DNA of 53,490 bases from Selaginella moellendorffii (Eukaryota; Plantae; Lycopodiophyta), in contig NW_003314264.1 in the NCBI RefSeq assembly GCF_000143415.4, positions 210,693-264,182 of the forward strand. Reading direction: 5' to 3'. Below, piece by piece: positions 4,278-38,668 of the stretch; within the stretch, counting starts at the first letter, position 1, and each line of letters begins with the position of its first letter. A program made the position numbers and the translations under genes. Below the pieces are notes generated by a model that saw nothing but the letters and a program-made list of their open reading frames with translations, did no database searches and was not told where the DNA came from.

Positions 4278-4334
4278 ATCTATTTAGTAAGTTTCCACCC
4301 TTATCCCAAAGACTAACTCCTGATACTAAATGAG
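4278..4334 (+). repeat. Short family-B LTR remnant (possible truncated 3' LTR)
   Basis: agactaactcctgatactaaatgagg also occurs in the B-type LTR at about 42835-42860. Confidence 0.55.
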
Positions 4335-4335
4335 G

Positions 4336-4948: not shown

Positions 4949-4972
4949 ATGCTCTATTTCGTTAAAGTGGGA
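4949..4972 (+). repeat. Left terminal inverted repeat
   Basis: atgctctatttcgttaaagtggga. Confidence 0.9.
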
Positions 4973-5608
4973 TTTATTCAGTAAAATGGGACTAGGTACA
5001 AATTTTCAAGTATTTGAAAATGACGTGAAATTATATGTTTTTTGTCTAGGGGCTAGACATATCTGGGGCATGGTGACTAGCGCGGTGACTTTGTGTCCAG
5101 ACTGAGTCCATTTGGTTGTATAATAAATCTCATTGTCAAGGTGAACAAGCCGAATCTGAAGCTAAAGAAGAGCGATGGCATGCGCGCACACACTATTTGT
5201 TTGTTCATTGAGCATGTGGTGAGCTTTCCAAGATGAACGTCATTCCTATTAGCCAGATATATAACTTAATGGTGAGAACATTTAGATATTATTCAATGTT
5301 ATCTTTTTCTAACGAATCTAATTGTGAAGGTGTAGCAAGAGGCATTGCTAGTCTGGAGAAGTCATTTAACTCATTTGACCCTTAGTGTATTTTCATGAAA
5401 CTAAATAACATTCATATTATTAAGGAATTTCTCTAGTACCTTTTTTTTACGATATAGAGGCTTGCATTTCTTTCAAAGGTGATTTAGTAAAAGGCCTGAG
5501 GGCACATGCCATTCTATTTCTCAGACCGGTATTAAGATATACTAGTGCAAAGGGAAAAAGGTATTTGGTGATCAAGTAAATGGCATGAGGGCACACGCCA
5601 TTATAAGC

Positions 5609-5881
5609 CTAAGCGCTAGTGGACACCTCCTTTTTGGTACTCTCAGCGGTACTATCATCCTTCTCCGGGTCAGTTGTTTTGCTTTGGATTGTTGTCTCTG
5701 ACGTTACTGGGGCGTTCTTGATAGTTGTTAATGTTGCTGTTTGTTCAGAAAAATGATCACCTAGAGTATAGTATGGGGAGTATGGAAGACTTATATATTC
5801 TACATCTTCACCTATCTCCTTCTCCGTCTCCTTTTCTGCCTCACTTACAGATTTTGTGCTTGCCATGAGAATGCTCTTCAC
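5609..5881 (-). CDS. Small Ser/Thr-rich ORF or terminal exon of unknown function, homologous to 48462-48707
   Basis: Shares SLP.SPYYT.G, KNAPVTSETTIQSK and DSTAEST with 48462-48707; both follow a tttag|ggt acceptor-like site. Confidence 0.55.
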   Translation of the reverse strand: MKSILMASTKSVSEAEKETEKEIGEDVEYISLPYSPYYTLGDHFSEQTATLTTIKNAPVTSETTIQSKTTDPEKDDSTAESTKKEVSTSA

Positions 5882-6579
5882 CCTAAAATATGGAGTTCGT
5901 TGTGTTATAAAAGGAAACTAACACACACGCTGCAAGGGAATGATGGTACATAAAGCACGTAAGCCCACAATATGGGTTTATGTGCCATTAATATGGGCCA
6001 CAAGCCATATTATTAGATTTATGCACGTGTGATTGGTAAATGCATATGTCACATCATCTTTGTTTTACCTCACACACTATATCAGGCCTAATGAACCATA
6101 TTACATGTGCGCACATGCTATATATATGGAGAAGTATTATGCAAGGATAGAAAAATTCAATGCATGATTGTGGAGAGCAATGGCATGAAGCCACATGCTA
6201 AATAACATTTTAGAGAAAGAATTAAAATAAAAACATGCAAACAGTACTGAGTGGACCAAGACTTAGAAGTGCACAATTGAATTAGGTATTTCTAATAAAT
6301 ATTTCACTCACCTCATATAGGAATGGCTACCACTCTCAAATGGCATTTCGCCTCATGCCATCACCTCGCAATTTGTTATAACAATCCGATGAATTCATAT
6401 TCGGCTTGTTCACCTTGAACTTTAAGTAAGATTTGCTAGAACAACTAAGAATTTATACTTGTTATTTGTATCATCTCACCTAGGAATGGCGTAAGGCCAC
6501 ATGCCATCATGCCTCCTCTGATTCAGATTCGGATTGTTCACCTTGAAATAAAATACATTAGAAACTTAGTAAAGGAATA

Positions 6580-9404
6580 TTAATGAATCTCACCTTGAAC
6601 CCGGGTTATGAATGCTCTTGCTGCATCTCTTGCATGGTCTGGCAAGGTGATGGTGGCACTCTCCTTCCGCATCCAACCATGCACAACATTATCCACCGAT
6701 ATGCTCATGCTGGGATCCCTTGGATTCAGCACCCATCTCTTTTCTAGGCAATCCTTCGTATATCCAGAATTTGGCTTGAACCACTCCACAGTTACATTGA
6801 AGGAGTTAGTTTCTGCGTCCTCCTCTGCATCAGTGATGCAGCGCCCCACCCATATCATTTGTTTTTTATTACTGGGTCTGACAAGCATGACCATTCCTTT
6901 GCAGACCTGTACTGGATTGAATGCTGAATCCGGCTTCTTGTTCCTCGGCCCACAATAGTGATCCTCAACATCGTTATCTGTCACTGCATTTCTAGAGGAC
7001 ATTGTTCCGCTACTATCTGGTGCTCTGGGTTCTGGCCAAAAGGACTCTTCCAATTCTTCATATACAACCGGCCCATTTTGGATAGCAGATATAATCTTCT
7101 CCCAGTATTCGAGCAAAGGCTTGCACCTCTTAAAATAGGATTCTCCACCAAACACCAACCCCCTCTTCCAGAAGGCAATATGCTGTCTAATCCCGGCCAC
7201 TATACTTTCCTGGTCTTTGAGTCCATCCGAGTGCATCGGCCGTGGGGAACCCTGAGGAATCATAGGTTCCCCAGTTATGGGATCTCTCTTGAAGAGTTCA
7301 ATGCCGTCCACTGGCAGCCACACTGTGTCCCATTCTCTCATCTTGTACCTCATCACTGGAGCACCGTCACGCATGCTGAAATGAAACTGAAGAGGCTTGG
7401 AGTGGCCAATCAGCGTTTTGGATCCGTCCCTGATGTAGCCTCTTACAAACCCTTAAAGTCTGGAACCTCTGTCACAAGTGCAGCTTCAACAGTGCCTTTG
7501 ATGCAATTTTGGAATTCATCGTAGAGTTGTGGGAGGGTGAGGACATTGGATCGCCGGAGGGACTCTGCCAGGTGACTGAACATGGCATCGATGTCTTCAT
7601 GAGTGTGCCCAACCATGAGAAAGCCAAGTGTAACTGTTTCAAATATGCCTTTGGCAACAAGCATCGCCAAGTACGCGAAGACGTACATGTTTTTGTTCTT
7701 ACTGCCAGCATTGTCTGTTTGGAGCAGAAGATGGGGTGGAAGGCCACATCGGCCGCAAGAACTTCCTTGAGATTCTGCTTCGTTTGGATGAGGCTGTGCA
7801 TTCACCGGGCGACCAGCCTCATCGGAATGGCATGAAGCCTCATGTGATAACCCTACAATCTGACGGCCAACATATTCACTGGGATGGCATGGGGCCCCAT
7901 GCGATACTGCAAGCCTTTGCTCCTCCTCCAGCTGAACCCTGTATGGGGTTCGATCGACAAGGGCCTTATGCAAGGGTTGGCCGTTCAGCTCAGTCTGCGC
8001 ACTTTGCAGAGACCTTAAGTGTTTTGCTAGGGACACAATCATCATGTTTGCACCCCCGCCACCCCATAGAGGTACAAAGAAGTTCCCATAATTCTGGGCA
8101 CCATGCCCATGAGCGATTATGCCAAACAGAGACACAGGCAGCTACATGGATGAAGAGATCGCCTTGGGGGCAGGATTGAGTCGAGGTAAGCACGTCTTTT
8201 TCTGGTCCATTTTGTCGTGGATGATGCAGAGGTAAGAGTCAGGTCTCTCCATGGAGAGAATCCTATTATGATAATATGCAGTCTTGCAGCTTCTCTGCTC
8301 GATGTTGTGGTCGAGCCACCTTCTAACCAACATCTCTCGCTCTTGAGCGATGCAAGAATTCTTCGACAAAGCCATTTTGATAGCAGTGCACTCGTCACAC
8401 TTTGAAAAGATGGAGTACTTTCCTATACTCACATCCCTGAACCTGTTGCTCCACAATCTACTAAATCTAGATTGGCTCAGCTTCCTGTAGCCATTACTCT
8501 GGAGTTCCCGATTCACATCTTCCAATATGGCCCCCTTGGTATACATGGAAGGGAGAACTCGTTGGGTGTTTTGAGTTCCATCTTCCAAGAGGCGGGTTTT
8601 ATGTGGTTGCTGCTCGCTATATGTCTCAACAAACTTCTTGAAGATTGCCTCTCTATATACAACATGACCCCTGGTTTTGTGAGTACCATCGTTCCCATGG
8701 ACTGCCTGTTGAACCCTTTGTTCCTCGAACTCAGTTTTGATTCTGTAGAATGTGGTTCGAGGGATTCCATAAATGATTCTCCATGCCTTCATGCAGACCA
8801 AACCCCTCTGGAAGACCATGCCCCCCACCTGATGTTTTGAAGCATCAACAGATGACCGTAATGCCTCATACACAAAATTGCGAGCTACCTTCCAGGATAA
8901 TGTCTTGTATCTTGCTCTCTCCTCTTCAATAGCATCCCAATCAGCATGTTGACAGCACCTCCTCTTGCAACAAGCAACTGTCGAGACCATTCGAACCTCC
9001 ATCGCCATTTTCTGCCTTTTCGGTTCGTTGCTCAGATCCCTTTGGCTGCGCTTTAGGAAGGTGTACTTTCTTTTCCCATGAAGAGATGTTCTGTCATCAG
9101 TTGTAGTGGTGTTTGATTGTGAATCCTTCACATTCTCAAACACTAAGTGCCTCAATTTCCACCGCACAATGCTTCCAATAGTCAGACTGTTTTCTTCTGT
9201 GTCAACAACCTCTAAAATCGCAACTCCAATATCATCCCAGCCCAATTCTTGATTAGCAACTGCATCTCTTGGATCGACAACTGTGGCTAAGCCCTCAGCT
9301 ACCACCTCCCCCTCGGGGTTGTTTAGAAACACCTTTGCCTGAATCCATGCAGCACGGTTCTTAAGATCCACGGAGGGAACATGCGTCGCACTTGCGGAGG
9401 CCAT
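6580..9404 (-). pseudogene. DDD-type transposase, DUF7869/Sola1-like; one nonsense codon and one frameshift
   Basis: Cys cluster CCKRRCC; FSKCDEC; putative catalytic Asp residues in CIIHDKMDQKK, LQTDNAGSKNKN and FLMVGHTHEDIDAMFS. In-frame TAG at 8142-8144; 1-bp frameshift near 7450 (DFKG/FVRGYIRDG..IGHSKPLQF) joins ORF 6580-7374. Confidence 0.8.
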
Positions 9405-9557
9405 TCTGAAAGTGCAGAAAAGAAGTTAAGACCATACAAAAAATAATTGGAGAATGGCCTAAATCATAACATACCAAACAACCTCAATAGCATGAGGCCA
9501 CATGCCATTATTCAAACATGCTATTGACACCCACGTGAAATTTCGCATTCACAAAAT

Positions 9558-9747
9558 TGGCATGAGGCCTCACGCTATCTTTGGCCCTTGCTAGCCTATA
9601 GCTATATTCCTTTTGCCTTGCTGCAACTGTATATATTTTTGTGTGCGTGATTAGTCACCCATACAAAAATATATACAGTTGCAGCAAGGCAAAAGGAATA
9701 TGGCAATAGGCTAGCAGGGGCCAAAGATGGCATGAGGCCTCATGCCA
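9558..9747. repeat. About 190-bp fold-back inverted repeat upstream of the transposase
   Basis: Arms of about 90 bp, nearly complementary (ttccttttgccttgctgcaactgtatatattttt / aaaaatatatacagttgcagcaaggcaaaaggaa); short loop near 9651; each end is a 22-bp palindrome copy. Confidence 0.9.
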
Positions 9748-9938
9748 TCTTGATATACTCACAGCTGCAGGCAAGTAAAAACATACATGACAATACGCTA
9801 GCCATGAAATTGCAAGGGCCCAAGATGGCATGTGGCCTCATGCCATTTCTAAATGTGGTCCTAAGCCATTCCATGGTGAACATACCAGGAAGCACAAGTG
9901 CCGAATATCAAGAGGAAGCGGTAGCCACACCAAAGACA

Positions 9939-10010
9939 GTGCCGCTCGCAACACCGCAACTACTCGTAGTGCCACTCGCAACACCGCAACTGCTCGTAGC
10001 GCCGCTCGCA
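9939..10010 (+). repeat. 30-bp tandem repeat, about 2.4 units
   Basis: Unit gtgccgctcgcaacaccgcaactactcgta. Confidence 0.8.
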
Positions 10011-10192
10011 CAAACTGCCACTTGCATAAACTGCCACTTGCAATGGCGCTCACAATGCCGCAACCGCTCGTAGACGCATAAACCACAGCTCACAACGCCG
10101 CTTACACAAGTAGCACTCACTGCACTCAGCGGAACCAAGAACACGGCGCACAAAAATGATAGACCTAGGAATGAGTTTGAGAATTCAAAAAT

Positions 10193-12128
10193 AACACACG
10201 CTTGAACGTCACATCAAATCCTCTGACAAACCAGATCTTATGACTCCTCTGACAAATTTCAAACTGAGTAGCTTCTAGACTTTGCTGTCGGAGGTTGAAC
10301 TTTGTCACATCATGTCCTTGCCTCGATCCAGCTGTGCCATGTCAGTGATTCAAACTTTGCCATGCCATGTCAGCGATCCGCGCCAAGATTATTTGCCGTG
10401 TAAAGGAATAATTATGCTGTGTGTGTACGTCCATTTATGGCAATATAAGGCCACATGCCATTCAAAGAATAATGCTAGTCGAGCATTTTTTGGTGCATTT
10501 TTGGGTTCAAAATTGCATGAGCCCACACACTATAAAGTTTACCTGTACCAAAAATAGAAACAGCTTTATTTACTTGGAAATTTAAGTGGTTAAGGCATTT
10601 TTAAACTTACAAACACATGCCCTACTTACATTCCTTTGGTTGCTTAAAATTCAAAAATATTATAAACCTTTCTTTTTGCATTTTCAATGTTTTCAATTAT
10701 GGTTTTTGATTTTCGCAGGACCAGCCTAGTAATCTATTTGCATCCCGTCATGTTTATAGCTAGCTTTCGTTTGTCCCCTTCGCTAGCCTGAGATACATCT
10801 GCTTGGCATCTGCCTCTTACAGCATTTGCCCAGAAAGGGCATCTTTCTTCACGCAGCATTTGCCACATGTTTAGGGTTTAGGGTTTAGCAATTCAGTAGC
10901 TTGATAAACATGCAAATACAGAACTTGATGCAAAATCCTTTGATATGTCACAATGCCCCTAGGACCATAAACACATTTCAATAGAGATGGTCCTTTCATT
11001 TCATAACTCTTTATATAGATCTTGGTGAAACCAGAGTTAGTGAAGTTAGTTTCCTGTAATCCCGCATCTGATTGTGATGTCCCTTTGCAGTGTCGATGGA
11101 AAGGTCAATGCACACCAAACTGTAAAATCTTGGAGCAAAATAACGGTCGGATCTATGCCAAATGCCTCTGAAAAATTGTAAGGCTCGTGTGGTCTCATGT
11201 GGTGTCCAATCGAGATGCTTCTTTGCAGGGTCATCAAGAAAGACATTGTATACCATTCTGTAAAATCTAGTTGCGATCTAACGGTCGGATCTCCAGAAAA
11301 CTCAAAAAAATCTTGCGCGTGTCAGAATATTCTAGGAATATACTCCTATGTGCCCCTGAAAATGGCATGCGGCCCCATGCCATTCAAGAGATAACGCTAG
11401 ATGACGCCGAGCATTTTTTGGTGCATTTTTTGGGATCAAAATTGCATGAGCCCACACGCTTGAACGTCACATCAAATCCTCTGACAAACTAGATCTTATA
11501 ATTCCTCTGACAAATTTCAAACTGAGTAGCTTCTAGACTTTGCTGTCGGACGTTGAACTTTGTCACATCATGTCCTTGCCTCGATCTAGCTGTGCCATGT
11601 CAGTGATTCGAACTTTGCCATGCCATGCCATATCAGCGATCCGCGCCAAGATTATTCGCCGTGTAACTGCTCGGCATCTGCCTCTTACAGCATTTGCCCA
11701 GAAAGGGCATCTTTCTTCACGCAGCATTTGCCACATGTTTAGGGTTTAGGGTTTAGCAATTCAGTAGCTTGATAAACATGCAAATACAGAACTTGATGCA
11801 AAATCCTTTGATATGTCACAATGCCCCTAGGACCATAAACACATTTCAATAGAGATGGTCCTTTCATTTCATAACTCCTTACGTAGATCTTGGTGAAACC
11901 AGAGTTAATGAAGTTGGTTTCTTGTGATCCCGCATCTGATTGTGATGTCCCTTTGCAGTGTCGATGGAAAGGTCAATGCACACCAAACTGTAGAATCTTG
12001 GAGCAAAATAACGGTCGGATATATGGCAAATGCTCCTAAAACATTGTAAGGCTCGTGTGGTCTCATGTGGTGTCCGATCGAGATGCTTCTTTGCAGGGTC
12101 ATCAAGAAGGACATTGTATACCATTCTT
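10193..12128 (+). repeat. Mosaic direct duplications in the intergenic region
   Basis: About 10193-10400 matches about 11452-11665; about 10799-11260 matches about 11667-12128; the latter pair each contain tttagggtttagggtttag. Confidence 0.85.
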
Positions 12129-12389
12129 TATTTAGCTGAACATCTGGCATTTTTGGAAATACAAGATGCTTTGGAATATCCAATCATGCATGGTATAAAT
12201 ATAGCGAGGGTATTAAATGATATCCCAATCATGATCTTTCTTTTGGATTTCACGTGCATGCAGTTTGAGGAATGATGACGTTGCGGATTTCTTTTGGATT
12301 TCACGTGCATGCATGCGCGCGGCGATCCAGAAATTAATGGTGGCGCCCAAGTCCGAGGAATGATGATGTTGCGGGATTACCAACCGTTG

Positions 12390-12700
12390 TGACATTTCGC
12401 GCGTGTGAGGTTAGGTTTTGCATTTTGCTTCGTACTCGCGCTCGCACACTCACGCTCGTATTGCGCTCCCACTCGCGATCACGCTCACATTCGCGCTCAT
12501 CTACCTTCTCTACAGGTTTCTCGTGTGCATTGGCGTCCACTCGCGCTTGCATCACACTCGCGCTCGCATCGCGCTCGCATCGCACTCGTGTGCATCGGCA
12601 TCCACTTCAAGACACACCCAGTTTGTAACTTCGCCGCCAACTCCGCCGCCCACTCCGCCACCCACACGCAGCCCACTTGGCATCCAGGGAGATTTTAGCG
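12390..12700. promoter_or_regulatory. CpG-rich low-complexity region, putative promoter or 5' end of the cargo gene
   Basis: Dense tcgcgc/cactcg repeats between the divergent transposase and cargo genes; position and composition only. Confidence 0.35.
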
Positions 12701-13033
12701 CCACTCTCCAACTGTAAGTGGCAGAGTAGCCTTGCTGCTACGATCCGCTGCACACACAGTGCACATTCGCCAGCGAGTCCGGCCTCGATTGTCACGCCTC
12801 CATTCGGCTTCAAATGGTAAGTCTTTTAGGCCAAGTAGAAAATGGCATGAGGCCACATGCCATTCAGTAGCAACATTGGCATGCACGGATTGGGCTCTCG
12901 AGTGCAGTCCGGTTACAAATGGCGTGTAGCCTCACGCTATCTTAGGATGCAGCCTCAAGACATCTGATGCAGTGGTGAATGGCGTGTGGCCTCACGTTAT
13001 TTCCAGCTGCTAGCTTTTCATCTGGCACTCTAA

Positions 13034-16000
13034 TTGTTGTGCATTTCTGAACAGGGGAGGAATTGCGTTCTTCTTCCAGCCACTGTCAATGTGGATGCAG
13101 AGAAGGGGGAGGAGCTCACTAGTTGGACTTTCGGGATGGAAGGCGAGGATCTGAGGCTGTACAACACAGATGGTGGGAGAAAAGAATGCATGGGGATCCT
13201 CATCCAAGTGACAGACACTCCATGCAGTTCCATGCAAGAATATGGACTGGCACTTGTGGTAGAGACAACGTCCGCCTTCAAGATCCACCTTGCACATCCT
13301 AGCGGCTTCCCGGAGGGGGGCAGCGGCTATGAGGAATTCCTAGAGGGAGCTAGGGAGAGGTTGTCCAGGAGGCCCACAATTTCAAAGACACTGCGGGTCT
13401 ATGAAGATCACATGGAATCCACGGACGTCAGCTACGGCGATGTTCAAAAACTATATTCCAAAATTGAGCCGTTGAGAGTGACTCCAGTTCGCGAAGCGAA
13501 GGGGAAGGGGGTTGATCTGGAAACTACCCCGAAGCAGAAAAGGGTGGTCAAGCTCAAGCCGACATCCGACTCTCCTGCTCCAAAAAATAAGCTACTCAGT
13601 GATGCCATTGCCTCAGGTTCGAACACTACACCCACCAAAAAGAAGAGCCGCAAAGAGCAGAAAGAGCAAGAAGAGGTAGCAAAAATTGTCGCAGATAATA
13701 GTACTTGTTACTATTCCAACAAAGTATATACAATCGACGTGAGCTGTATCGACATCCAAAGCAAATACAACCACAGGCTAGTATCTGATGAGTGGGTGGA
13801 GAAACTGAAGCAGAAGATGCTGGCAAGTCCAGTAACACCCAACATCGCAGACTTGATCCCCTACTACCGAACAATGAAGGGCGAGATGAGGTTTCCAGAC
13901 TTGATCAATAGGAAGGTGTTGGACGATCAGAACATCCGGTTCTATGCCATCTCCGGGCAGCATTCTAGCTTGGTGATGCACGAGATAGTTGTGGATATTA
14001 TGGTGGGCAAGGAGGTGAAGAAAGTCTTCAAGACAAGAGTTGTCCGCTTGATAAAAGGCAACTCGCCCCTCCGATCTATCATATACATCTCCCACGCGCA
14101 GAATGTCAAGCAAGAAACGTGCTACAAATCGGGTCTGCACGAGACATTGGCACGAACACGGAAGCTCTGGGTTCAACTGAAGAAACCACAAAAACCAGGA
14201 CAAGGACGTGCACTAGCAACTAGCGCCTGGCAGGTAAGCCTCGTTGCATGTGGCATAGCATGTGGCCTCACGCCATTTCCATTGTAGGAATTCTCGAGTC
14301 TTCTCTCGAAAACACTGGGGGTCAATGACACACTCAGCATCCATAACATTCTACTCGTGACAAAAGTTGTTTTTGACAAATGGGTAGATGTGCTGAGGAG
14401 GTACCATGACGGGGAGTTGCTAAACTCAATGGGTGTGGAGGACGGCCGGAAGCCCAATGATTTGAAGCTCAATGCCTTGCATTTCTCGCGGTCTCTAGAC
14501 GACGACGACCTTCTGACAGTGGCTAATGCTCTTCTATGTGGTGAGGTAGTCTTCAACAAGACCAAAATGACTCCCGGCCATATTGTGACATACGAGGACT
14601 TGTGTACGACTCTGAGAGCTCGTGCGCTATTGAAGGATTGGATCTTCGAGCAAGTGGCCGTGGAGAGGGTGAGCATCGACACCACGCAAGAGATGATGGA
14701 AGAGCTGGAGTTGTCAAATGAAGACATTGACGAGTACGTGAAGGGGGCCCCCAAGTTCATCGATCTGCTGCGGGATGCCACGAAAAGTAAAGCTGAGAAG
14801 TTGGATTAGTATCCAAATTTCATTAAGAGGGATGTCGACCGCCGGCTTCAGAAACAGCTCGACCCCACAGCAGAGGCCTATCGAGAACGTTACCGGGTAT
14901 ACGTGAATTCGGATGAGGATCAAAGGTGGAGGAGCATCGTTTCCCATGGAGATGAGCAGGTCAAGAACATCTTTTGTGTGATGGACTTCACAAACGAGGA
15001 GATCACTCATGAAGACGAAGTCAGCTCCATCATTGACTTAATGGTGGGACTTGCGGAGGTGGAATCTTCTGTCCACTATATGATCTATGACGAATGTCCG
15101 CATCTTCACACTCGCCCTTGTTAATGGTCCTGCAGCAGAGTGGGACTGGAGTGACTTCCCAGCTTCGTTCGACAAGGCCGATCGAATTGATCTGAGGGAG
15201 GTCAATTTACCCGTGCCTGAGGAACTGAAGACGGCTATGGAGCTTTCGAATCCAGAGAAAGATCCAGGTGCAGCATGGGAAATGCTCAGCTGGGTCTTCA
15301 ACGCAATAGCGGGTGGGTCACTTGCTTCCAACTCCAATGGCAAATGTGTTGTGGAGTACAACTGCGGCGGACTATTCTTTCGAGCCGCACTACTCAAGGG
15401 TGTCCCGTGTGTTGCGGTGACAAACTCCATTGAAGAGGTGACTTCAATGGAGCATATAATTACAGTTGCCAAAGAAAAACAGTATCTTCTCTGCGAACCT
15501 GGTGAGTACGCACTTTAAGTTTAAATGTTATCTCACAAGCTCTGTATGCAGGAGCGTGGCCACCCCCAGATGCTGAAACGGCGTTAACAGCTACTGTTGA
15601 AGATAACCATGTTGGGCCGAGCTCACAACCTGCACAAGGTAAGGTCACGTGAGGCCTCACGCCATTTTGATTATAGATCGTTGCGAATATTCAGACACAA
15701 GGACTGAAAAGCGCACTGGTGGTGCATCGAAGAAGGACAAACAGACAAGCAATAGGAAAAAAGGAGGTACAAATTATATTTGCAATGGCGTGTGGTCTCA
15801 TGCCATTCCTTGCAGGAGACACTTCTTCAAAGGCAAAATAGGCAAGCACCAGCCAAGCTCAAACTGACAGTGGTCATAAAAAGCGAAAGCACGTTGGACA
15901 GTCGTCGGGATTAGAGGCGTTTGATTCGAAAAGGAAGAAGGGCAACGAAAAGATGATAGGTAATGCCTCGCGGTTATGGCGTGTGTGCTCATGCCATTCA

Positions 16001-16073
16001 TTGCAGATCAAGGGCTGAGTGAAAGCAGCCAGTCACCACCTCCTGACTCAGATTCCTATGGCGGACTCCCCTT
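13034..16073 (+). pseudogene. Transposon cargo gene, 5' part: ParB/Srx-like domain plus degenerate beta-class MTase-like region; multi-exon
   Basis: ParB-like YNHRLVSDEWVEKLKQKM...FYAISGQHS; intron 14234-14287 joins the frames; in-frame TAG at 14807-14809; frameshift near 15080; EKDP...KCVVEYNCGG..FRAALLKGVPCVAV resembles the SAM-binding end of N6/N4 MTases. Further short introns from 15639, at 15767-15815 and at 15960-16006. True start not determined. Confidence 0.65.
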
Positions 16074-17249: not shown

Positions 17250-17303
17250 ACTCCACCACCCATAGAAGAAGTTCGATGCCCACATCGAATGTCTCGTTTT
17301 ATC

Positions 17304-26076: not shown

Positions 26077-26081
26077 TTTGG

Positions 26082-26758: not shown

Positions 26759-27920
26759 GTATTTGTAAGGAACCGACTCCCCGAGATGTCGTAGGCTAAA
26801 GGATCCCCAAAAGCTTGACCGAAATGACAAAGAGTTCATCGGATGGGACCAAGTCGAGGATCGAGTCCAAGACCGACTCTAGGACCGAGTTCGAGATAGA
26901 GTCTGGAATCGAGTCCGAGACTGACTCGGGGACCGAGTTCGAGTCCGAGTTCGAGACCGAGTTCGAGACGGAGTCCGAGATCCGAAATCGGGTCCGAGAC
27001 CGAGTCCGAGGTCGAGTCCGAGGTCGGGTCCGAGATCAGGTCCGAGATCGAGTCCGAGATCGAGTCCGAGACCGAATCCGAAGTCGGATCCGAAATCGGG
27101 TCCGAGATCGAGCCAGAGACTAAGTCCAAATACTAATACGGGTCAAGGGGTGAAAGCCCAAAGCGTGCGTCTCCCAGGGGGGGGGGGGGCTGCAGGGGGT
27201 TCCAAAAGTATAGTAGGGATAGTGAGGTCCAGGAACCAGTTTTGAAGGGACTCTCCAGTTGGGCTTCGGCTTGAGGTTGAGGCTGGGACCGAGGGGCCTT
27301 GGGTGGGAGTGAGCATGGACTTGGCTGGTGCCGGAGGGGCCATCCAAGGAAGTGCTCAAGAGCAGCTCCCACTCCCGAAAGGGAAACCGACTGCGGTGCT
27401 CCCGGCTCATGTGGAGTGGTGCCCCACTTGAGTACCTTGTGGCTCATTGGTCCTCGCCCTTCCGGGGGCTTAGGCCTTCCCTTCGGGATGGAACAGGGGG
27501 GGTAGAGGTACCCATACCGGGCCGTTAGGCCACGGTGTTTCGCCCCGACGTCCCGAAGCAAGTGCTGCACCCAAGGCTTGGGATTTAGAGGGTCCCATGA
27601 TCAAGTCTTGTGGTACCAAGGGGTGTTAGGAACCTGGAGGCTTGGTGTGCTTGGCTGCTTGTGCCTGCGGGGAGTGTAGCCGAACCTTAAGTCCAGTCTA
27701 ACCCGGGGAGGGGGATTGGGAGAGATTTGGGAATCCGTAGATGGATGGCTAACACTCCGTTGCTCGTGCAATGCGTAGCTGAAACCAAGTAGGACCAAAT
27801 AGGAGCTGGTACCATAAGCGAGAACCTTGGCGAAGGAACTTAGCACAAGCCAAGGCAGAGTTGGTCGGATAGACGAGGTAAGCTGGCAAATTGGAAAGGA
27901 AAAATTTGTGGCTTACAATT

Positions 27921-28317
27921 TGGTATCGTAGCGGTCTCGGGTCCGACTCTGTTGGTTGGCTAAGGGAATCGCACCACATGTTGATTGACATCTGGCTGGT
28001 CCAGTTTGCTCCCGCTGGGCTCGACCCGAGGGGTAGGGTGTCAAGAGAGCGGGGCTCTCGGGAGAGCTGCGGCTCTCAGCTTCCGTTCACGAGGGCGTGA
28101 ACTTGTAGGGAAGTGTGGTGGATTTTAAGCAACCAAAGAGAACGACTTGAGAGACGGTCCATGGGGTTCAAATATAGAGGGAAAGGGCCCATGAACAAGA
28201 GTGCACCCCCTTTTCCAATCGGTTAAGGGTCTTGGGATATTTGGGGTTAAGCGTCCTTGGGTTTGAGTAGTACTGAGCTGGGTGACCTCCCGGGAAGTCC
28301 AAACTCAGGAGCTTACA
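27921..28317 (+). mobile_element. Cassandra-like TRIM unit (PBS, short internal domain, PPT, 5S-bearing LTR at 28039-28317) inside the leader of C
   Basis: PBS tggtatcg at 27921; PPT gaggggtaggg; TG..CA LTR; second PBS tggtatcggagc at 28320; the same module appears in canonical order at 40495-40812 (minus). Confidence 0.75.
28246..28300 (+). other. 5S rRNA-derived segment (internal pol III promoter region) within the TRIM LTR; not a full 5S gene
   Basis: gttaagcgtccttgggtttgagtagtactgagctgggtgacctcccgggaagtcc closely resembles the plant 5S A-box/IE/C-box region as recalled. Confidence 0.8.
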
Positions 28318-31300
28318 TTTGGTATCGGAGCCTCTTCCTCAGTTCTAGCGAAGGATAGAGGCGGATTGCTGGGAAATGATGAAGGCGAGGATCCGCGCAA
28401 CTTACGTTCCTCCGAATGCTACTCTACACCTAAGGGACGAGCTGAGTAGGCTGAAGCAGACCGGAACCATTCAGGAGGATACTTGTCACGGACATGGGGG
28501 ATATGGATGCGTTCCATGCCTTCATATCAGGTTTGCAAACCTGGGCTCACGGCGAAGTAATGCGGTGGAACCCGACCAACTACAAGGAAGCGTTGGATGC
28601 GGCCATCAAGGTGCATTTCAACGATAACCTGCGAAAGGGGAACACGACGGGGTCGGGATCCACATTTAGCAAAGGGGCCAAACAAAGGGGAACGTTTAGC
28701 AGAGGGAAATTCAAGAAGAGTTTCTCTAAGAATGAGTCCTCGGGGTTCCGGAAAGGCAGATCCGGTGGCCAGCGAGCGAGTACGTGGGGGAGTCAAGCGA
28801 AAAGAGACAAACCCATGGATAAGAAGGTCAAGTCATATAGCAGCATGGGAAACAACGTATGCTACAACTGCGGTGAAGTGGGACACTTCTCGAGGGAATG
28901 TCCCTACCCAAAGAAGGCCAGAGCCAATATGGCCATCAAGTCGGGTGAAGTCCAAAATGAGGTATGTGATCCAGTCCCTAACTCAAAGTTACTCATTACA
29001 CGAGCAACTTTGGTAGAGAGTCGTTCGCGACATCTACTAGCCCTCCGAGGGAAGCTCGGAGGTAGCTTTGTTAAGATCCTTATTGACACGGGTGCTTCGA
29101 ATAATTTTGTGGCTGCAGACATAGTCCGGCAAGCCGGACTAACGTTGCAGCGGCTAGGCGAACCAAGGACTATAGAGTTTGTTCAAGGTAGCCAAAGCAT
29201 CGATGAGGTACTTCGACAAGCGAGAGTCAAAGTGGGGACTTGGAAGGTGGACATGGATTTCACTGTGTTGGACATGGCGGGATTTGACGTGATCTTCGGA
29301 ATGGACTGGTTCAATCGATTCGTGGTAGCCCTGCATGGTCAAGGTAGAAACCTTGTGGTACTGGCGAATGCCCAAGGAAGAAGATCTAGGGTGGAGGCCC
29401 AAGATCTAAAGGTAGGGCAAAGCAAGGCTAAAGATTCTTGCTTAAACCTGGTGTCCACGAGAGGACAACTCACTAAAGGAACTAAGGCGGCCTTTTTGTG
29501 CTTACTCTCGGTGAAGAGTGACAAAAAGACAGGAATGGAAGAAGTACCTTTAGTGATCCAGCGGGTGTTGGACCAATTCCAGGATACCATGCCGGAGGAG
29601 CTACCGGCGGGGCTACCCCCAGCACGACCGATAGAACATAAGATTGAGCTGGTCGAGGGTGCTGAGGCAGTGGTTCGTCCCCCTTATCGTTTGAACGAAA
29701 AAGAACTCAAGGAGCTCAAGTGCCAACTAGAGGAGTTGGTGGACAAAGGGTATGTTAGGTTGAGCAAGTCGCCATATGGGGCGCCGGTGTTATTTGTGAA
29801 AAAGAAAGATGGATCTATGCGCATGTGCATAGACTACCGGTTGCTCAACAAGTATACAAAGAAGAACAAGTACCCTTTGCCAAGGATTGAGGACCTGTTC
29901 GATAGGTTGGGAAAGGCAAAATACTTCTCGAGGATTGACCTAAGGTCAGGATACTACCAGATCAGGGTAGCCGAGGAAGATGTCGAGAAGACAATCTGTC
30001 GAACTAGGTATGGGAGCTTTGAGTTTCTGGTGATGCCCTTCGGGCTATGTAATGCGCCGACAACGTTTTCGGCGCTAATAAACCACATCTTTGTACCCTA
30101 TCTGGATCACTTCGTGGTCGTCTATATCGACAACATCCTGATCTATAGCGAGACGCTAGAGGAGCATGCCGAACACTTGGCGAAGGTGTTTGAGAAACTA
30201 AGGGAACACAAGCTGTATGCTAAAGAGAGCAAATGTGACTTTGCTCAACAAGAGGTAAAGTTTCTCGGGCATGTGGTGGGCTAGGATGGGCTCAAGGTGG
30301 ACCCAGAGAAGGTCCAAGCGATCCAGGAATGGGAGCGACCATCGAACGTACATGAGTTGAGGGCATTCCTGGGGCTATGCAACTACTATCGAAAGTTTAT
30401 CAGACACTATTCGAGAGTAGCCCTGCCCTTAACGGACCAAACAGGAAAAGGGAAGATGGTGTGGACAGCGGAATGCGAGGCGGCATTCGTCCACCTCAAA
30501 GGGAAGTTGAGAAAGGCTCCCGTATTGGCATTACCAGACTTTGGTAAGGACTTTGAGGTAGAAACGGATGTTTCGGACTTTGCGTTGGGCGCAGTTTTGA
30601 AGCAAGACAACCATCCGGTAGCGTTCTTCTCGAAGAAGCTGGACAAGGCTCAACGGAAGTGGCCTGCCCACGAGAAGGAATTGTTTGCGGTGGTCAAGGC
30701 GCTCAAGGAGTGGCGACACTACCTTGGGAGACACTTCAAGGTTTACACGGACAATGTGGCAACGAAACACTTCTTGTCACAGCCCGACCTAAGAGGGAAA
30801 CAAGGTCGGTGGGCCAATGCCTTGGCCGAGTTTGATTGCGAAATTCTGTACAAGCCTGGGAAGAGCAACATCGTGGCGGATGCGCTAAGTCGGAAAGCAA
30901 GCTTGAAGTTGGCAATATCCAGCGCAATAGCAACCTTCTGGGACGATGTGCGGACAGCATATGAGAACGATGGTCTAGCATAGGAAGTGTTGCTGAGGAA
31001 TCTAGAGGCGCGGGAAGCTCACCAGAGAGGTGAGCTGCCAACGGAAGAGAAAACGGGCTATGCAGAACGCAACGGACTCATTTATTACAAGCAAACGAGG
31101 GTGTATATTCCAGAAGGGGAACTAAGGAAGGTGGCCTTAGAAGAGTGTCATGACGGACCTCTTGCGGGACACGGTGGAGTGCCCAAGACAATGGGCTTAC
31201 TCAAAAGGAAGTACCATTGGCCAGATATGGCTAAGGACGTCCAAGACTATGTAAAGACATGTCCAACATGTCAGCAGGTAAAAGCCGTGACTAAGGCTAG

Positions 31301-31635
31301 TGGGGGCTTGTTGCAAAGCATCCCAATTCCAAATCGCCCGTGGAAATGTCTTACGATGGACTTCATCACGGGACTCCCCCCAAGCGAGGGGTTTGATGCG
31401 ATATTCGTGGTGGTGGACCGATTTTTGAAAATGGCACACTTCATACCCACCACAACGGAGGTGGATGCGAAAGGTGTGGCAAAGCTGTTCTTCGAACAAG
31501 TGGTTCGAGTGCGGGGAAGACCGGAAGAGATCATCTCAGATCGAGATAAGATCTTCACCAGTAGGTTCTGGAGGACTCTCCTGGAACAGTATCGCACCAA
31601 GTTGAAATTCAGCACAGCCTATCACCCACAGACAG

Positions 31636-31680
31636 GTATGGGGTATTGAGTCAAGTGTTGGCACTAACACTTCTTGACAG
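31636..31680 (+). other. Spliceosomal intron 1 in integrase (45 bp)
   Basis: GTATGG..CACTAAC..TTGACAG; removal restores AYHPQTDGQMERVN; the intron holds an in-frame TGA. Confidence 0.85.
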
Positions 31681-32098
31681 ACGGACAAATGGAAAGGGTG
31701 AATAGGCAGCTGGAGGATTATTTGCGATGCTATGTCTCGGGAGACCAGACCGATTGGGTAAGTCATTTGGGACTTGCGGAAATGTGTTATAACAACTCAC
31801 CACATTTGACTATCGGGGTGAGTCCATGGGAAGTCATTAATGGGCGAGCTATTGAAGGTCCTATGGAACTCGGCGTGGCCGAGTATCATGGAGAGTTGCC
31901 CGCAGTGGAGGCATTCACGGCGGAAAGACTCAGCATTTGGAATCTAGTGAGGGATTCCTTGGAACGGGCTCAACAAAGGCAAACCAAATACGCGAACCAG
32001 AAGCGTCGGGATGTAGAGTTCCAAGCTGGGGAGAAGGTGTGGCTGAACACCAAGAACCTCAGACTACCAAGTGGGATCAGCCGAAAGTTGACCCAAAG

Positions 32099-32150
32099 GT
32101 AAAGATGCATGTATTCCTGTAAATGAATTGATCTTGAGTTCCTTAAGCAG
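32099..32150 (+). other. Spliceosomal intron 2 in the integrase GPY/F region (52 bp)
   Basis: GTAAAG..CCTTAAGCAG; removal gives KLTQRFARPYEIEARIGKVAYRL in frame. Confidence 0.85.
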
Positions 32151-34093
32151 GTTCGCGAGGCCTTACGAGATTGAGGCACGAATCGGTAAAGTGGCTTACC
32201 GACTCCGACTTCCTCGAGAGATGGGGAAGATGCACCCAGTGTTCCACGTGAACTTACTCAAGCCGTACTTTGAGGATCCACTTCGCAAGGACCAAGTGAG
32301 ACCTTTACCTAAGGTTATCCAAGGGGAAGAGGAATACGAAGTCGAGGCCATCCTCAATGCGCTCAAGAGCAAGCGACAAGGACGCGAGGTGAGAGAGTTC
32401 CATGTGAAGTGGAAAGGATTTCCACACTGCGAAGCAACATGGGAACCAAAGGAGAACCTAGCAAACGCGCGAGATCTAGTGGAGGAATTTCTGCAAGGCA
32501 GAACTCTATGTACTTATGCAAAGTTCAATTAAAAATATCAATTTGCAAAGTTGAGCAAGTGGCATATGTTGGGACCCGAAGGCGAGCGAAAGGTAAGCTA
32601 ATTAGCATGGGTTGGATAGGTCGACCAGGCGTAAGGCACTACGCCCGACTCCCCACAGGGATGTCGAATCCGTAGACGTATTCTATGGAGGTTGGGTTCG
32701 AGTCCCAAACCCCTAGTAAAGCAAGGCTGGGTTCAAGTCCCGACCCCATACTAGGGCGTGGTGAGGTGAGGAGTATAGGGACACCTATATTCCATTGTCA
32801 TGGGCTATTGGCCGGGGAGGCTAACTTAGGCACACCACTAAGTGGGGGGATGCCCCTGGAGACATGGTCAACAAGTCGTAGGATAAAATGAGATGTTCGA
32901 TGTGGGCATCGAACTTCTTCTATAGGTGGTAGAGTTGTAATGAACCGACTCCCCGAGATGTCGTAGGCTAAAGGATCCCCAAAAGCTTGACCGAAATGAC
33001 AAAGAGTTCATCGGATGGGACCAAGTCGAGGATCGTGTCCAAGACCGACTCTAGGACCGAGTTCGAGATAGAGTCCGGAATCGAGTCCGAGACCGACTCG
33101 GGGACCGAGTTCGAGTTTGAGTTCGAGACCGAGTTCGAGACGGAGTCCGAGATCCAAAATCGGGTCCGAGACCGAGTCCGATGTCGAGTCCGAGGTCGGG
33201 TCCAAGATCGGGTCCGAGATCGAGTCCGAGATCGAGTCCGAGACCGAATCCAAAGTCGGATCCGAAATCGGGTCCGAGATCGAGCTAGAGACTAAGTCCA
33301 AATACTAATACGGGTCAAGGGGTGAAAGCCCAAAGCGTGCGTCTCCCAGGGGGGGGGGGCTGCAGGGGGTTCCAAAAGTATAGTAGGGATAGTGAGGTCC
33401 AGGAACCAGTTTTGAAGGGACTCTCCAGTTGGGCTTCCAAACCGACTTGAGGTTGAGGCTGGGACCGAGGGGCCTTGGGTGGGAGTAAGCATGGACTTGG
33501 CTGGTGCCGGAGGGGCCATCCAAGGAAGTGCTCAAGAGCAGCTCCCACTCCCGAAAGGGAAACCGACTGCGGTGCTCCCGGCTCAGGTGGAGTGGTGCCC
33601 CACTTGAGTACCTTGTGGCTCATTGGTCCTCGCCCTTCCGGGGGCTTGGGCCTTCCCTTCAGGATGGAACAGGGGGGGCAGAGGTACCCATACCGGGCCG
33701 TTAGGCCACGGTGTTTCGCCCCGACGTCCCGAAGCAAGTGCTACACCCAAGGCTTGGGATTTAGAGGGTCCCATGATCAAGTCTTGTGGTACCAAGGGGT
33801 GTTAGGAATCTGGAGGCTTGGTGTGCTTGGCTGCTTGTGCCTGCGGGGAGTGTAGCCGAACCTTAAGTTCAGTCTAACCCGGGGAGGGGGATTGGGAGAG
33901 ATTTGGGAATCCGTAGATGGATGGCTAACACTCCGTTGCTCGTGCAGTGCATAGCTGAAACCAAGTAGGACCAAATAGGAGCTGGTACCATAGGCGAGAA
34001 CCTTGGCGAGGGAACTTAGCACAAGCCAAGGCAGAGTTGGTCGGATAGACGAGTTAAGCTGGCAAATTGGAAAGGAAAAATTTGTGCCCTACA

Positions 34094-34814
34094 GTATCCT
34101 CTTTGCCATAAACCCATTGACATACTCCTGAATGGTTTCGGTCTGCTTCAACCTACTCAGCTCGTCCCTTAGATGCAGAGTAGCATTTGGAGGAACGTAA
34201 GTTGCGCGGATCCTCGCCTTCATCATTTCCCAAGTGGCCACCGGTCCTTTGTTGGCCTCTGTCGTTCTCCACCAAGACTTGGCATTATCTACCAAGTATG
34301 GTTTTGCACATGGGACCTTCTCCGAGCTCGGTAATCGCAATGCTCGGAAGTAGTCCTCCATATCGTAAAACCAATCCTCCACCACCTTATAGTCGTTCAC
34401 TCCCTTGAAGACCGGTGGGGGCTTTGGCTTGTACTTGGGAACTGCCTGAGGGACTGATTCCACTTCGGTCTGTTCGACCTTGTCTGGTTTTGCCTCAGTC
34501 CCTGCCAAAGGGTCCGCACCTTCTGCGCTGCCAGCATCTGCAGTCTTTCGCTTTTTCTTCCGCTTCTCATCACGCTTTAGCTTGCGTACGAGAGTCTCCA
34601 GCAGGGCATTGGTCTGCGCCAATTGTCCTTCTAGAATGTCCAATCGAGCCTTGGACGACCGAACCTCACCACCAGACTCCTGTTTGGAAGTTGCCTCATT
34701 GGAGTCCTCCTCATGCAAGGATTCCTCATCCATTGCCTCCTGTTCGACCGGAGGCTCCAGCTCTGGAGGAGGTTCTGTCTCCGCCTGGGTTTGCTTACGT
34801 CCTGCCCTTGCCAT
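34094..34814 (-). pseudogene. Element A gag N-terminal part, interrupted by C
   Basis: Retrotransposon-gag motifs PPVFKG..VEDW..MEDYF, AKSWW and LKQTETIQEY; ATG at 34814, just downstream of the PBS. Confidence 0.9.
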
Positions 34815-34873
34815 CTCCCAGCAATCCGCCTCTATCCTTCACTAGAACTGAGGAAGAGGCTCCGATACCAAAT

Positions 34874-35957
34874 TGTAAACCACAAATTTTTCCTTTCCAA
34901 TTTGCCAGCTTACCTCGTCTATCCGACTAACTCTGCCTTGGCTTGTGCTAAGTTCCCTCGCCAAGGTTCCCGCCTATGGTACCAGCTCCTACTTGGTCCT
35001 ACTTGGTTTCAGCTACTCACTACACAAGCAACGGAGTGTTAGCCATCCATCTACGGATTCCCAAATCTCTCCCAATCCCCCTCCCCGGGTTAGACTGAAC
35101 TTAAGGTTCGGCTACACTCCCCACAGGCACAAGCAGCCAAGCATACCAAGCCTCCAGATTCCTAACACCCCTTGGTACCACAAGACTTGATCATGGGACC
35201 CTCTAAATCCCAAGTCTTGGGTGCAGCACTTGCTTTGGGACGTCGGGGCGAAACACCGTGGCCTAACGACCCGGTATGGGTACCTCTACCCCCCCCCCAC
35301 TTCCATCCCGAAGGGAAGGCCCAAGCCCCTAGGAAGGGTGAGGACCAATGAGCCACAAGGTACTCAAGTGGGGCACCACTTCACATGAGCCGGGAGCACC
35401 GCAGTCGGTTTCCCTTTCGGGAATGGGAGCTGCTCTTGAGCACTTCCTTGGGTGGCCCCTATGGCACCACTCAAGCCCATGCTCACTCCCACCCAAGGCC
35501 CCTTGGCCCCAGTCTCAACCTCTTGCACCCCTTGCAGCCCCCCCCCCCCCCCCCCCTGGGAGACGCACACTTTGGGCTTTCACCCCTTGACCCGTATTAG
35601 TATTTGGACTTGGTCTCTGGCTCGATCTCGGACCCGATTTCGGATCCAACTTCAGATTCGGTCTCGGACTCGATCTCGGACCCAATCTCAGACCTGACCT
35701 CAGACTCGACCTCGGACTCAGTCTCGGACCCGATTTCGGATCTCAGACTCCGTCTCGAACTTGGTCTCGAACTCGGACTCAAACTCGGTCCCTGAGTCAG
35801 TCTCGGACTCGATTCCGGACTCTATCTCGAACTCGGTCCTAGAGTCGGTCTTGGACTCGATCTTCGACTTGGTCCCATCCGATGAACTCTTTGTCATTTT
35901 GGTCATGCGTTTGGGGTTCCTTTAGCCTACGACACCTCGGCGAGTTGGTTCCTTACA
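34874..35957 (-). repeat. 5' LTR of element A
   Basis: Adjacent to the PBS; matches 16074-17249 with indels. Confidence 0.95.
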
Positions 35958-35962
35958 CCCTT

Positions 35963-38221
35963 CCCCAATCTCAATGGAGAGGTATAATGGATGAGGGATG
36001 CTTTTCAAGTTAGGGCCACGTTTTTCTCATCTCGTCATCTTCGAAGGGTGCAAGAATGTGCAGAAACCATGTTAAGACAGTCGGGTGAGGATACGGTCCT
36101 AGGTCACGCACTAAAACAGGCTATGGATGTCTTGTATTTTGAGATGGAGACTCGGCCAGATGATTTTCCCAAGATGGTCTTGGAAGAACAAGCCATCCAG
36201 CCTAAGCAGCCTATGGAAGAAATGCAGGAGGGGGATGAGGAGCCAGAGAAAGATAATGAGCAGGAAGAGCAGAAGGACGAAGAGGAGGACAAAGAAGAGG
36301 AGGACGAAGAAGAGGAGGACGAAGAGGACTTGGATGGTCCTCACAATGGTGACGATCACAATAACGACGACGACGATGATGACGACGATGGCCAGCCTGA
36401 GGTGGCCAAAGAGCAGCTGAGGAAGGTCATACAAGACAAACAATCAGGTAAATAATAGTACATCCATTCCTAACCTTTTACCATTTCTAACATTGTCCAT
36501 GTAGGTCGCAGAGTAAATGGTAAGTAGAGATTATTCAGTTGAATTAAGATACAAACTCTAGCCTTTAGTGATGAGGAAGGATAGTGCCAAGCAAGGGTCG
36601 AAACGTATGTCCAATCCTTCAGAATCAGCAGTGCGCCCAAGTGATATCAGTCCTAGTTCCTCAATAGCAGTTGATGGTAAATACAGTATAGTCGATTCAA
36701 TGTGCTAATGAGTTTGTTTTTAGTAGCCAGTAGGGAGGATACCATCTCAATCGAAGGGAGATATTTGGACATGCATATGGATCCGCTAGTGGACTCTACT
36801 TGCCTGCAAGAGTCATTAGAGCTGGTGGAGGCTACTATCTATATCAACGCCAAGCAAGCTGACCACGCTCCACTCGATGCTGCCCATACCACTGAGTCAA
36901 TCTTGTCCACGTATCCAACTGACGGTGACCAGGTGCCATTGGACCCGCATGAGGCCGCCCCAGCCGCCGAGCCGGTCGTATCCTCATTTCCAACGGACTC
37001 AACGTGTGCCCAATCGTCTGACTATGCGCCGTTGGAACCTCCCTACACCGCCCCTGCTGCCTGTTCGGTCATGTCCACTTTGCCAACGGAGGCACCAGTT
37101 GAAATGGCGTGTGATCACATGCCATCGGAACCACCCCATGCCACTGTTGAGCCAGTTGTACTAGAGTCTACAGCTGAAATGGCATGTGCTCACACGCCAT
37201 CGGATGTGATTGACCCCACATTGCAGAGGAGAGTATTTCCGCCCTTCACGTTTCCTCGACCAAAACCCTCTCAACGACCATCAGGAGCACCATTCGCTAA
37301 TATTGTAGATGGTAAAATTGACTTGTACCATTTTTTATGCTGACGCATTTCATTTCAGAGTCACGGCGAAGGTACTGTATCGTTTTTGATCTGAACGGTG
37401 TCCTTTTCTCCCATGAGCGTGGCTCGTCCTCGAATGTCACTACACCCTCCAAAGCCTGCGGTCGCAAGTTGGTCAAAAGAGACAGATTCACATTAATCAC
37501 ACGGGAGAAACTGCGGGATCTAATAATGACCATGCGACACTTAAAACAGAGGGCCGGGTTCAATTTTCAATTGGGAGTTTGGACATCCATGATGTGCCAC
37601 AATGCATTAACGTTGCTACAGATGATGCACGATCAGACGCGAGTAATATTACCATTTGACTTTCTCCTAATGTAGGAGGATTGCTTGACTATGGTCCATG
37701 TGAGGGGTAGCAAGCCCATCTTCGTCAAGCCAGAGGCTGTAGTGATGAACCGGACTGCTAGGTCAAGTGAAATCCTCATCATCGATGACTCACCGATTAA
37801 AACTGCAGCAAACACGCACACATATGCAGTGCACCCCATCTCTTGTAGTATGGAAACTAGGGAGAAGAAACCATATGTTCTGGGGGACCTTGCAAAACGG
37901 CTTGGAGCGATGGTGATAGAGAACCGGCCAGTCCAGAAGGTGGCTGCAGAAATCAACCAAATGGCAGATGGAATGGTATATCAGAAGCCATTTGATCAGA
38001 CAGACACCAGTCATCATTTATGGCATGTATATTGTCTAGCCAAGCACTATCCGCATCTCCATAATCTGCTCAACCGGATGGGTTCTTCGACCACTGAACA
38101 TGAGCGTGGACGTATTAGAGAAGAGATAGCATTACTATTGGGTTTAAATCCTGATAGTGTGGAGAGTGATGAAATTCCAAGATTATTGTATAGGCGTTGG
38201 AGGCAAAAAATAACAGTCTGA
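35963..38221 (+). pseudogene. Transposon cargo gene, 3' part: acidic/Pro-rich linker plus FCP1/NIF-type HAD phosphatase-like domain
   Basis: Removing A joins GGLPF|PNLNGEV*WMRDAF in frame; intron at about 37312-37358; CIVFDLNGVL, LGVWTSMM, FDFLLM*EDC (TAG likely from CAG) and ILIIDDSPIK match NIF-family HAD motifs. Confidence 0.7.
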
Positions 38222-38639
38222 GATGGCATGTATTTATTTTAAAATGTAACTTATTATGGCATGGGGTTCCATGCCATTGTATTAATATTAAAAGACAATT
38301 CTTTGAGAGGATTTGCATTATACTAGAAGTGTTACAACATGTTATTGGAAGTCTACGAAGTTGTTTTATTAATAAGGGGAAAGTAAAGATTGAATGGGGA
38401 CTTGGGCTCCACCTAGACTTAGAGCAACTGAGCCAATATTAAAAAGATGGAAAGAAATTGGATGACGATGACAAGGAGAAGAGAGAGGTGAAGCAGTGGC
38501 AGGGGGAGGAGAAGTGATTGAGTAGACATTTCCTTGTTTAAAATAAAATGGCATGTGCCTCAATGCAGTTGAATTTTGTTATATTTATATATTATATAAA
38601 GGTTTGGAAACCTTATTTTACAAGTGGGATAATGACAAT

Positions 38640-38663
38640 TCCCACTTTAACGAAATAGAGCTT
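38640..38663 (-). repeat. Right terminal inverted repeat
   Basis: tcccactttaacgaaatagagctt; its reverse complement matches the left TIR at 23/24. Confidence 0.9.
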
Positions 38664-38668
38664 CGATC

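Follow-up and report, generated by a model that had tools for sequence, protein, structure and literature searches.

The stretch analysed here (53,490 nucleotides of the lycophyte Selaginella moellendorffii, contig NW_003314264.1 of assembly GCF_000143415.4, positions 210,693 to 264,182 of the forward strand; hereafter the window) contains a DNA transposon in which an imperfect 22-bp palindrome recurs 28 times. The transposon is bounded by terminal inverted repeats (TIRs) of 24 bp (left 4949..4972, plus strand; right 38640..38663, minus strand), 23 of 24 bases of which match, and by a target-site duplication (TSD) of 5 bp (left 4944..4948; right 38664-38668). Its insertion split the zf-RVT reading frame of a long interspersed nuclear element (zf-RVT Pfam match at 38651-39088). 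From this one insertion the TSD is best read as 5 bp; a 4-bp reading would leave a base at the right end unpaired. The native sequence lies in a left arm (4949..16073) and a right arm (35963..38663), separated by a nest of Gypsy-type long terminal repeat (LTR) retrotransposons (16074..35962) that is flanked by its own 5-bp duplication (16069-16073 and 35958-35962) and contains no palindrome sites. Two genes are recognisable: a transposase gene on the minus strand (6509..9404; DUF7869 match with E 6.6e-37), which in this copy has one stop codon and one frameshift and whose short last exon is predicted only, and a predicted spliced accessory gene on the plus strand (12814..38221), which is divergent from the transposase gene and interrupted by the LTR nest.

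An earlier note on this DNA had reported about 25 copies of the palindrome, and this number agrees with our counts. A direct scan of the window found 10 perfect copies and 26 copies with at most three mismatches, and a symmetric position weight matrix (PWM) yielded 28 matches (score ≥10), all of which lie within the 13,830 bp of the native element. Of the 26 site positions listed in the note, 25 are exact site starts with 0-3 mismatches; the remaining site, placed at 10441, is real but starts at 10440 and has a broken left arm, and two sites, at 10512 and 11441, had been overlooked. The confinement to native transposon sequence described in the note was borne out within the window: the PWM had no match in the nested LTR elements (19,885 bp) or in the flanks (19,775 bp), even at a score ≥6. 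As the PWM was derived from 27 sites, its matches in the native element are circular, unlike the lack of matches in the site-free regions. In 40 order-3 Markov simulations of the native sequence, 0-3 sites with at most three mismatches were obtained versus the 26 observed.

The geometry of the sites is constrained. Among the 17 pairs of arms that have no more than one mismatch, the spacer measures 6 bp in 16 cases and 20 bp in one, in line with the fixed spacing noted before, whereas the accompanying statement that the spacer varies in sequence has to be corrected, as this variation is not free: 22 of 28 sites have G at spacer position 2 and C at position 5, 16 of 28 have GC in the centre of the spacer, and A or T prevails at the outer bases of the spacer. 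Since the spacer has a consensus, the site is better described as a 22-bp palindrome with two loose positions. At the variable arm positions 6 and 17 the combinations A-T (13 sites), A-C (7), G-T (4), G-C (3) and C-T (1) occur without covariation across the 28 sites (Fisher p=1.0), and the outer spacer bases are able to pair in 9 of 28 sites. The independent variation of the half-sites favours a dimeric DNA reader that reads the two half-sites separately over an RNA hairpin. The binding site for a dimeric protein that had been proposed on the basis of a fixed spacing and a free spacer sequence thus loses the second of these arguments and keeps the first, and it gains the independence of the half-sites as well as the avoidance of coding sequence and the palindromes of related elements described below.

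The sites are distributed over the whole native body, in which the largest site-free gap is 1,603 bp, and are not restricted to the subterminal regions, as had been recognised before. Seven sites lie in the left subterminal region and the 3' region of the transposase gene (5175..6507; starts at 5175, 5491, 5580, 6100, 6180, 6340 and 6486), eight upstream of the transposase gene and in the intergenic spacer (9487..11462; 9487, 9557, 9727, 9825, 10440, 10512, 11362 and 11441), seven in predicted introns of the accessory gene (12842..15997; 12842, 12919, 12979, 14255, 15644, 15785 and 15976) and two in the right subterminal region (38256..38569). Only four sites fall into predicted coding sequence, namely two in the transposase frame, where they occupy a loop of variable length in the catalytic core (7827..7905), and two in an exon of the accessory gene that is of low complexity and rich in Pro, Ala and Glu (37104..37200). 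Thus, 24 of 28 sites are located outside predicted coding sequence, although the latter makes up 57% of the element (p=3e-6). An intron reading of the two sites in the transposase loop was rejected; the frame is open and the loop is also present in relatives.

The seven intronic sites of the accessory gene are found in five of its ten predicted introns, and four of these introns are merely 47-56 nt long and about half occupied by one site each, without being longer than the site-free introns (45-57 nt). Another copy of the family (loose end of a run X16 contig) has an apparent extra short site-bearing intron near 15854. Such tiny introns, together with the intronic sites in relatives and a long fold-back of 190 bp at 9558-9747, could point to a structural role, in which RNA hairpins would aid the splicing of tiny introns or DNA cruciforms would form, or in which a host factor would be recruited. 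The lack of covariation and the low number of pairing outer spacer bases argue against hairpins, and within the family the sequence of the sites is kept beyond what symmetry alone would demand, so that we regard a structural or host-factor role as decidedly improbable. The region 4900-16100 had no Rfam match, and a reading of the sites as a known RNA family was rejected.

Some sites belong to duplicated modules (10195-10531 versus 11371-11666, and the fold-back at 9558-9747, which is built differently near 9560-9730 in other copies of the family). One module, consisting of a splice acceptor, a mini-exon of the GEQxE type and a palindrome site, occurs in three copies, 5134-5196 (plus strand), 6340-6425 and 6486-6547 (both minus strand), and the inversion of one of them suggests that the site was spread by local duplication and inversion. 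It is conceivable that fold-back copying and local duplication alone spread a functionless palindrome. However, the flanks of most sites are unrelated to one another, and single sites in tiny introns and protein loops are hard to reconcile with such a neutral by-product. In the intergenic spacer (10195-12130), the blocks 10195-10403/11453-11666 and 10799-11262/11667-12130 are 94-96% identical, and telobox-like repeats are present near 10870 and 11740, similar to repeats upstream of the transposase of the related locus L047.

In a metagenome scan, 291 stretches with a related transposase were confirmed, and the best 80 of them were analysed. Palindromes were discovered de novo and locus by locus, so that the confinement of each word to its family is judged from this per-locus discovery, and a G+C filter was applied after AT-rich palindromes had swamped a first scan of AT-rich loci. 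An own imperfect palindrome of about 22 bp with at least three copies was detected in 29 of 80 loci versus none of 80 Markov shuffles; several of the 29 loci are near-duplicates or weak, leaving about a dozen distinct words. The motif of the window element itself was not enriched in these loci (12 scattered matches with at most three mismatches, spread over 10 of the 80). On a tree of 81 transposases the words go with the clades, and even close relatives have related but different words (L037, L047, L043 and L048, with transposases 84-90% identical) or close but different ones (L042 and L067, 80% identical). In 15 chosen loci, 84 of 103 sites lie upstream and 17 downstream of the transposase, two in introns and none in transposase-aligned sequence. 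No relative has more than 22 sites, compared to 28 in the window element. Tandem palindrome arrays are frequent among the relatives, which would again suit a neutral spread, but the same geometry recurs with other letters across transposases that are only 29-48% identical, and of all explanations considered we find a neutral origin the hardest to believe. A host factor would leave the dozen different words unexplained.

The ends of the relatives were placed by locus-to-locus comparison, because BLAST comparison of the flanks of about 40 loci rarely revealed TIRs. The locus L074 harbours a complete element of 5,356 bp (1349-6704) with TIRs, a 4-bp TSD and eight sites, two of them in an apparent intron region, and no second gene was found in it. 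The clade of L008, L010, L015 and L026, which is sister to the window element (support 0.815), has an upstream array and likewise looks transposase-only, with a left end that is not firmly placed. The terminal 9-14 bases of the right end are common to distant clades (L008, L012, L015, L016, L032, L040, L049, L055, L061, L070, L071, L074, L079 and L080), indicating that the internal word can change without a change of the ends; the terminus of the window element differs from this common right end. L061 has two different words, one upstream and one downstream, and hence an array need not belong to its adjoining transposase.

The transposase consists of an SH3-like N-terminal domain, a Cys cluster, two predicted helix-turn-helix (HTH) units, a DDD-type core and an SH3-like C-terminal domain, and its relatives are 29-36% identical. 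The motifs HDKMD, DN and GHTHEDID are common to the window transposase and its relatives; we take these motifs to be features of Sola1 transposases, and judged by its sequence the element appears to be a Sola1-like DNA transposon. The predicted structure of the transposase was poor (pLDDT 50), comparison of this structure gave no significant fold match, and a sequence search of the PDB yielded weak matches only. In related transposases (L001:1929-2230, L004, L008, L010 and L018), two tandem SH3-like N-terminal domains are present, the first of which resembles a domain associated with CACTA TnpA (Transposase_23, E 0.043, below the cut-off), and DUF8039 is annotated on the related proteins P0004 and P0006. 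A Ser/Thr/Glu-rich frame of 102 codons on the minus strand (5612-5917), preceded by a splice acceptor and without Pfam match, may be an additional exon of the transposase or else a small third gene.

The exon model of the accessory gene is based on splice signals only, and one intron boundary is uncertain by a base. ParB, Noc and KorB are palindrome-binding proteins, and a ParB/sulfiredoxin-fold domain encoded at 13697..14122 (plus strand) has the N-terminal fold of ParB, as judged by structure matches to Noc (7ol9, E 7e-4), PadC (Z 9.8, root mean square deviation 3.3, 100 residues aligned) and KorB (Z 9.1, deviation 2.6, 94 aligned). It is followed by a helical region and an N6/N4 methyltransferase-like region (14288..15501, plus strand; frameshift or deletion at about 15089), assigned via the homolog P0049, whose Atlas model matches N6_N4_Mtase and phage ParB_N+N6_N4 fusions in structure; these matches are modest (template modelling score by query 0.36-0.41, feature scores 0.83-0.84, one of ten rows reaching the bar for naming). 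The final part of the gene encodes a NIF/FCP1-like domain of the haloacid dehalogenase type (37361..38221, plus strand; E 4.5e-6, 26.9 bits, cut-off 21.8), in whose DxDx motif Asn replaces the second Asp. In word-index protein searches, the ParB region retrieved 0 and 1 proteins, and viral-contig scans found no relatives of the transposase or the accessory protein. Among the Atlas feature neighbours of the ParB-like region (13664-14233) were unnamed clusters from molluscs and sponges and a fungal one in which 31% of the members carry DUF3723, a Starship accessory family.

The combination of a ParB fold with dispersed palindromes resembles the bacterial systems ParB-parS, Noc with its binding sites and KorB with its operators. 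A ParB-methyltransferase-like protein might accordingly be loaded onto the palindromes, in the form of a dimer or clamp, and spread from there to mark or shield the element, and the window element indeed combines the gene with the highest site count. In contrast to bacterial ParB-parS, ParA is absent and an HTH following the ParB fold is not established in the window element: past residue 170 the model is of low confidence and gave only weak winged-helix or homeodomain rows (Z<4). CTP-binding ParBs carry an arginine patch, GxxRxxA, at the place of which all 11 aligned sequences have SGQHS or SGQHL, with SGQH nearly invariant in the family; the canonical CTP-binding motif is therefore absent. 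Beta-class N4/N6 DNA methyltransferases have the catalytic motif (D/S/N)PP(Y/F), which by eye appears replaced by MDFTN in the window copy and by ADLRR in P0049, and about 100 nt further on are missing from this region of the window copy. The methyltransferase-like part is thus probably dead. As a further point against such a system, palindromes occur in relatives in which the ParB gene was not found, including the complete element in L074; profiles of the accessory gene gave no hit below E 0.5 in the 80 loci, while the window itself was recovered at 1e-75 or better. Similar ideas have been published for Sola1-1 of Ectocarpus (PMC12477816) and for PAG3 beside inverted-repeat arrays in the Plavaka elements of Bostrychia (bioRxiv 10.1101/2025.02.11.637652). 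We consider such a parS-like system a serious candidate, albeit on balance a somewhat unlikely one.

Our preferred reading is that the 28 palindromes are putative family-specific sites for a dimeric protein encoded by the element, most likely the transposase; we put it forward tentatively, at a little short of an even chance. The transposase ranks first as reader because it is the sole protein common to all carriers, and a complete transposase-only relative with eight sites makes it a likelier reader than the ParB protein. The TIRs and the palindromes would be read by different DNA-binding modules of the transposase, the latter module contacting one half-site per subunit; sites would arise by local duplication and be retained wherever coding constraint permits, and the word would drift alongside the protein, so that each family addresses its own copies only. 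As purpose we rank first a coating of the element that, on the model of VANC, TnpA and the AtMu1c transposase, would keep transcription on and silencing off, with which an internal-enhancer role in transpososome assembly would be compatible. An internal enhancer read by a separate transposase domain is known from phage Mu. The ParB-methyltransferase-like gene would have an accessory part: its product may make use of these sites, which would exist without it. In systems with a comparable logic, the AtMu1c transposase suffices by itself to hypomethylate and activate cognate copies (bioRxiv 10.64898/2026.08.24.746577), and VANC motifs are located in introns and spacers (PMC5735166).

Several observations weigh against the transposase as reader of the palindromes. 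The TIRs do not contain the palindrome half-site, and a second DNA specificity must therefore be assumed. In a comparison of nine transposase regions across 12 loci, none followed the motif more closely than did the protein as a whole; HTH1 did best, with an uncorrected permutation p=0.047 as one of nine regions, with the L065 cluster seemingly out of register, and the two HTH units are nearly alike in four families with differing words. Many of the 80 loci are short or decayed, and a ParB gene could be present elsewhere or act in trans. AtMu1c and TnpA act at the termini and not along the body of their elements (bioRxiv 10.64898/2026.08.24.746577). With respect to protection from silencing, the observed/expected ratio of CpG is equal in the element (0.64) and the nested LTRs (0.68), the CHG excess of the element (0.88 versus 0.66-0.69) falls to 0.73 in its non-coding parts, and 122 of 173 differences between the window copy and run X1 are C-to-T or G-to-A changes of the deamination type, the main mode by which this copy decayed.

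The window copy itself is dead, as indicated by its stops and frameshifts. Contigs from sequencing runs that represent other copies diverge exactly before 4949, those of one run begin at 4949 with other flanks, and in all four runs contigs pass from 16073 directly into the sequence at 35963, i.e. other copies lack the LTR nest. Extra DNA in other copies at 9396 (244 nt), 12750 (about 230 nt), 15089 (about 100 nt) and 15854 (about 120 nt) indicates that the window copy carries deletions. The left arm is covered almost completely by small read assemblies, suggesting a family of high copy number. Short introns with GT-AG borders, retroelements of plant type and telobox repeats would suit a land plant without flowers as host. 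The nest at 16074-35957 comprises at least three Gypsy-type elements, with LTR pairs at 18835-19981/24930-26076 (99.3% identical) and 26763-27917/32935-34093 (96.9% identical).

Both the element type and the idea of ParB proteins bound to inverted repeats are already in print, and the palindromes are a real observation. Sola1-1_Ec32 of Ectocarpus is a giant Sola1 of 21.5 kb with a 282-bp TIR and a 4-bp TSD, the best match of which is the Sola1-1 transposase of Physcomitrella, and like the window element it has, on the strand opposite to the transposase, a gene in which a ParB-like domain is joined to an N4/N6 methyltransferase domain (PMC12477816). It differs from the window element, which has 13.8 kb, a 24-bp TIR, a 5-bp TSD, a NIF domain, an apparently dead methyltransferase and 28 dispersed sites; internal palindromes are not mentioned in the passages or the supplement row on Sola1-1_Ec32 (PMC12477816). 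The giant Plavaka (EnSpm) elements of Bostrychia likewise have an accessory gene with a ParB domain, for which the inverted-repeat arrays at PAG3 were proposed as sites, but they belong to another superfamily, their arrays are in tandem and adjoin one gene, and ParB is fused to a 2-oxoglutarate oxygenase (bioRxiv 10.1101/2025.02.11.637652). In contrast, the sites of the window element are dispersed, and relatives have sites where the ParB gene was not found.

The closest parallel in distribution is offered by VANDAL elements, whose family-specific motifs lie in introns, intergenic and terminal non-coding parts and evolve with an element-encoded protein (PMC5735166), and a family-specific motif in the non-coding parts is also what we found. 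VANDALs, however, belong to the Mutator superfamily, their motif is a non-palindromic 9-bp sequence in tandem repeats, and VANC is an accessory protein with demonstrated binding and demethylation (PMC5735166). No VANC homolog turned up in the analyses of the window, none of which was a search aimed at VANC. In TnpA/Spm and AtMu1c, the transposase or a derivative reads clustered family motifs via tandem HTH units, yet there both the motifs and their effect are limited to the termini, and the TnpA motif is a non-palindromic 10-bp sequence (bioRxiv 10.64898/2026.08.24.746577). In the literature covered, which excluded subscription papers and Repbase, no account was found of internal family-specific palindromes as a trait running through the lineage of Sola-like elements, or of their presence in transposase-only members.

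Self-recognition and reactivation by silenced plant transposons are known for few systems (VANC, TnpA and AtMu1), and the Sola-like lineage offers many natural pairs of motif and protein with long, symmetric and easily tested sites. The published guess that transposon ParB proteins bind nearby inverted repeats thereby becomes testable, and the complete transposase-only relative indicates that such repeats can exist without a ParB gene in cis. Once confirmed, a reader would provide a new source of DNA-binding proteins with 22-bp sequence specificity for plant chromatin. A bolder proposal, which we regard as improbable, is that the whole lineage possesses a fast-evolving 22-bp palindromic self code, present in every intron, spacer and protein loop that tolerates it, which is read by the element's own protein to coat and de-silence its own family alone, and that the giant members add a ParB-methyltransferase-like clamp of phage origin, which would load at the sites and slide along plant chromatin as a eukaryotic version of parS/ParB spreading. 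If true, reading of the self code would give a dozen natural protein-operator pairs for a readout of the recognition code.

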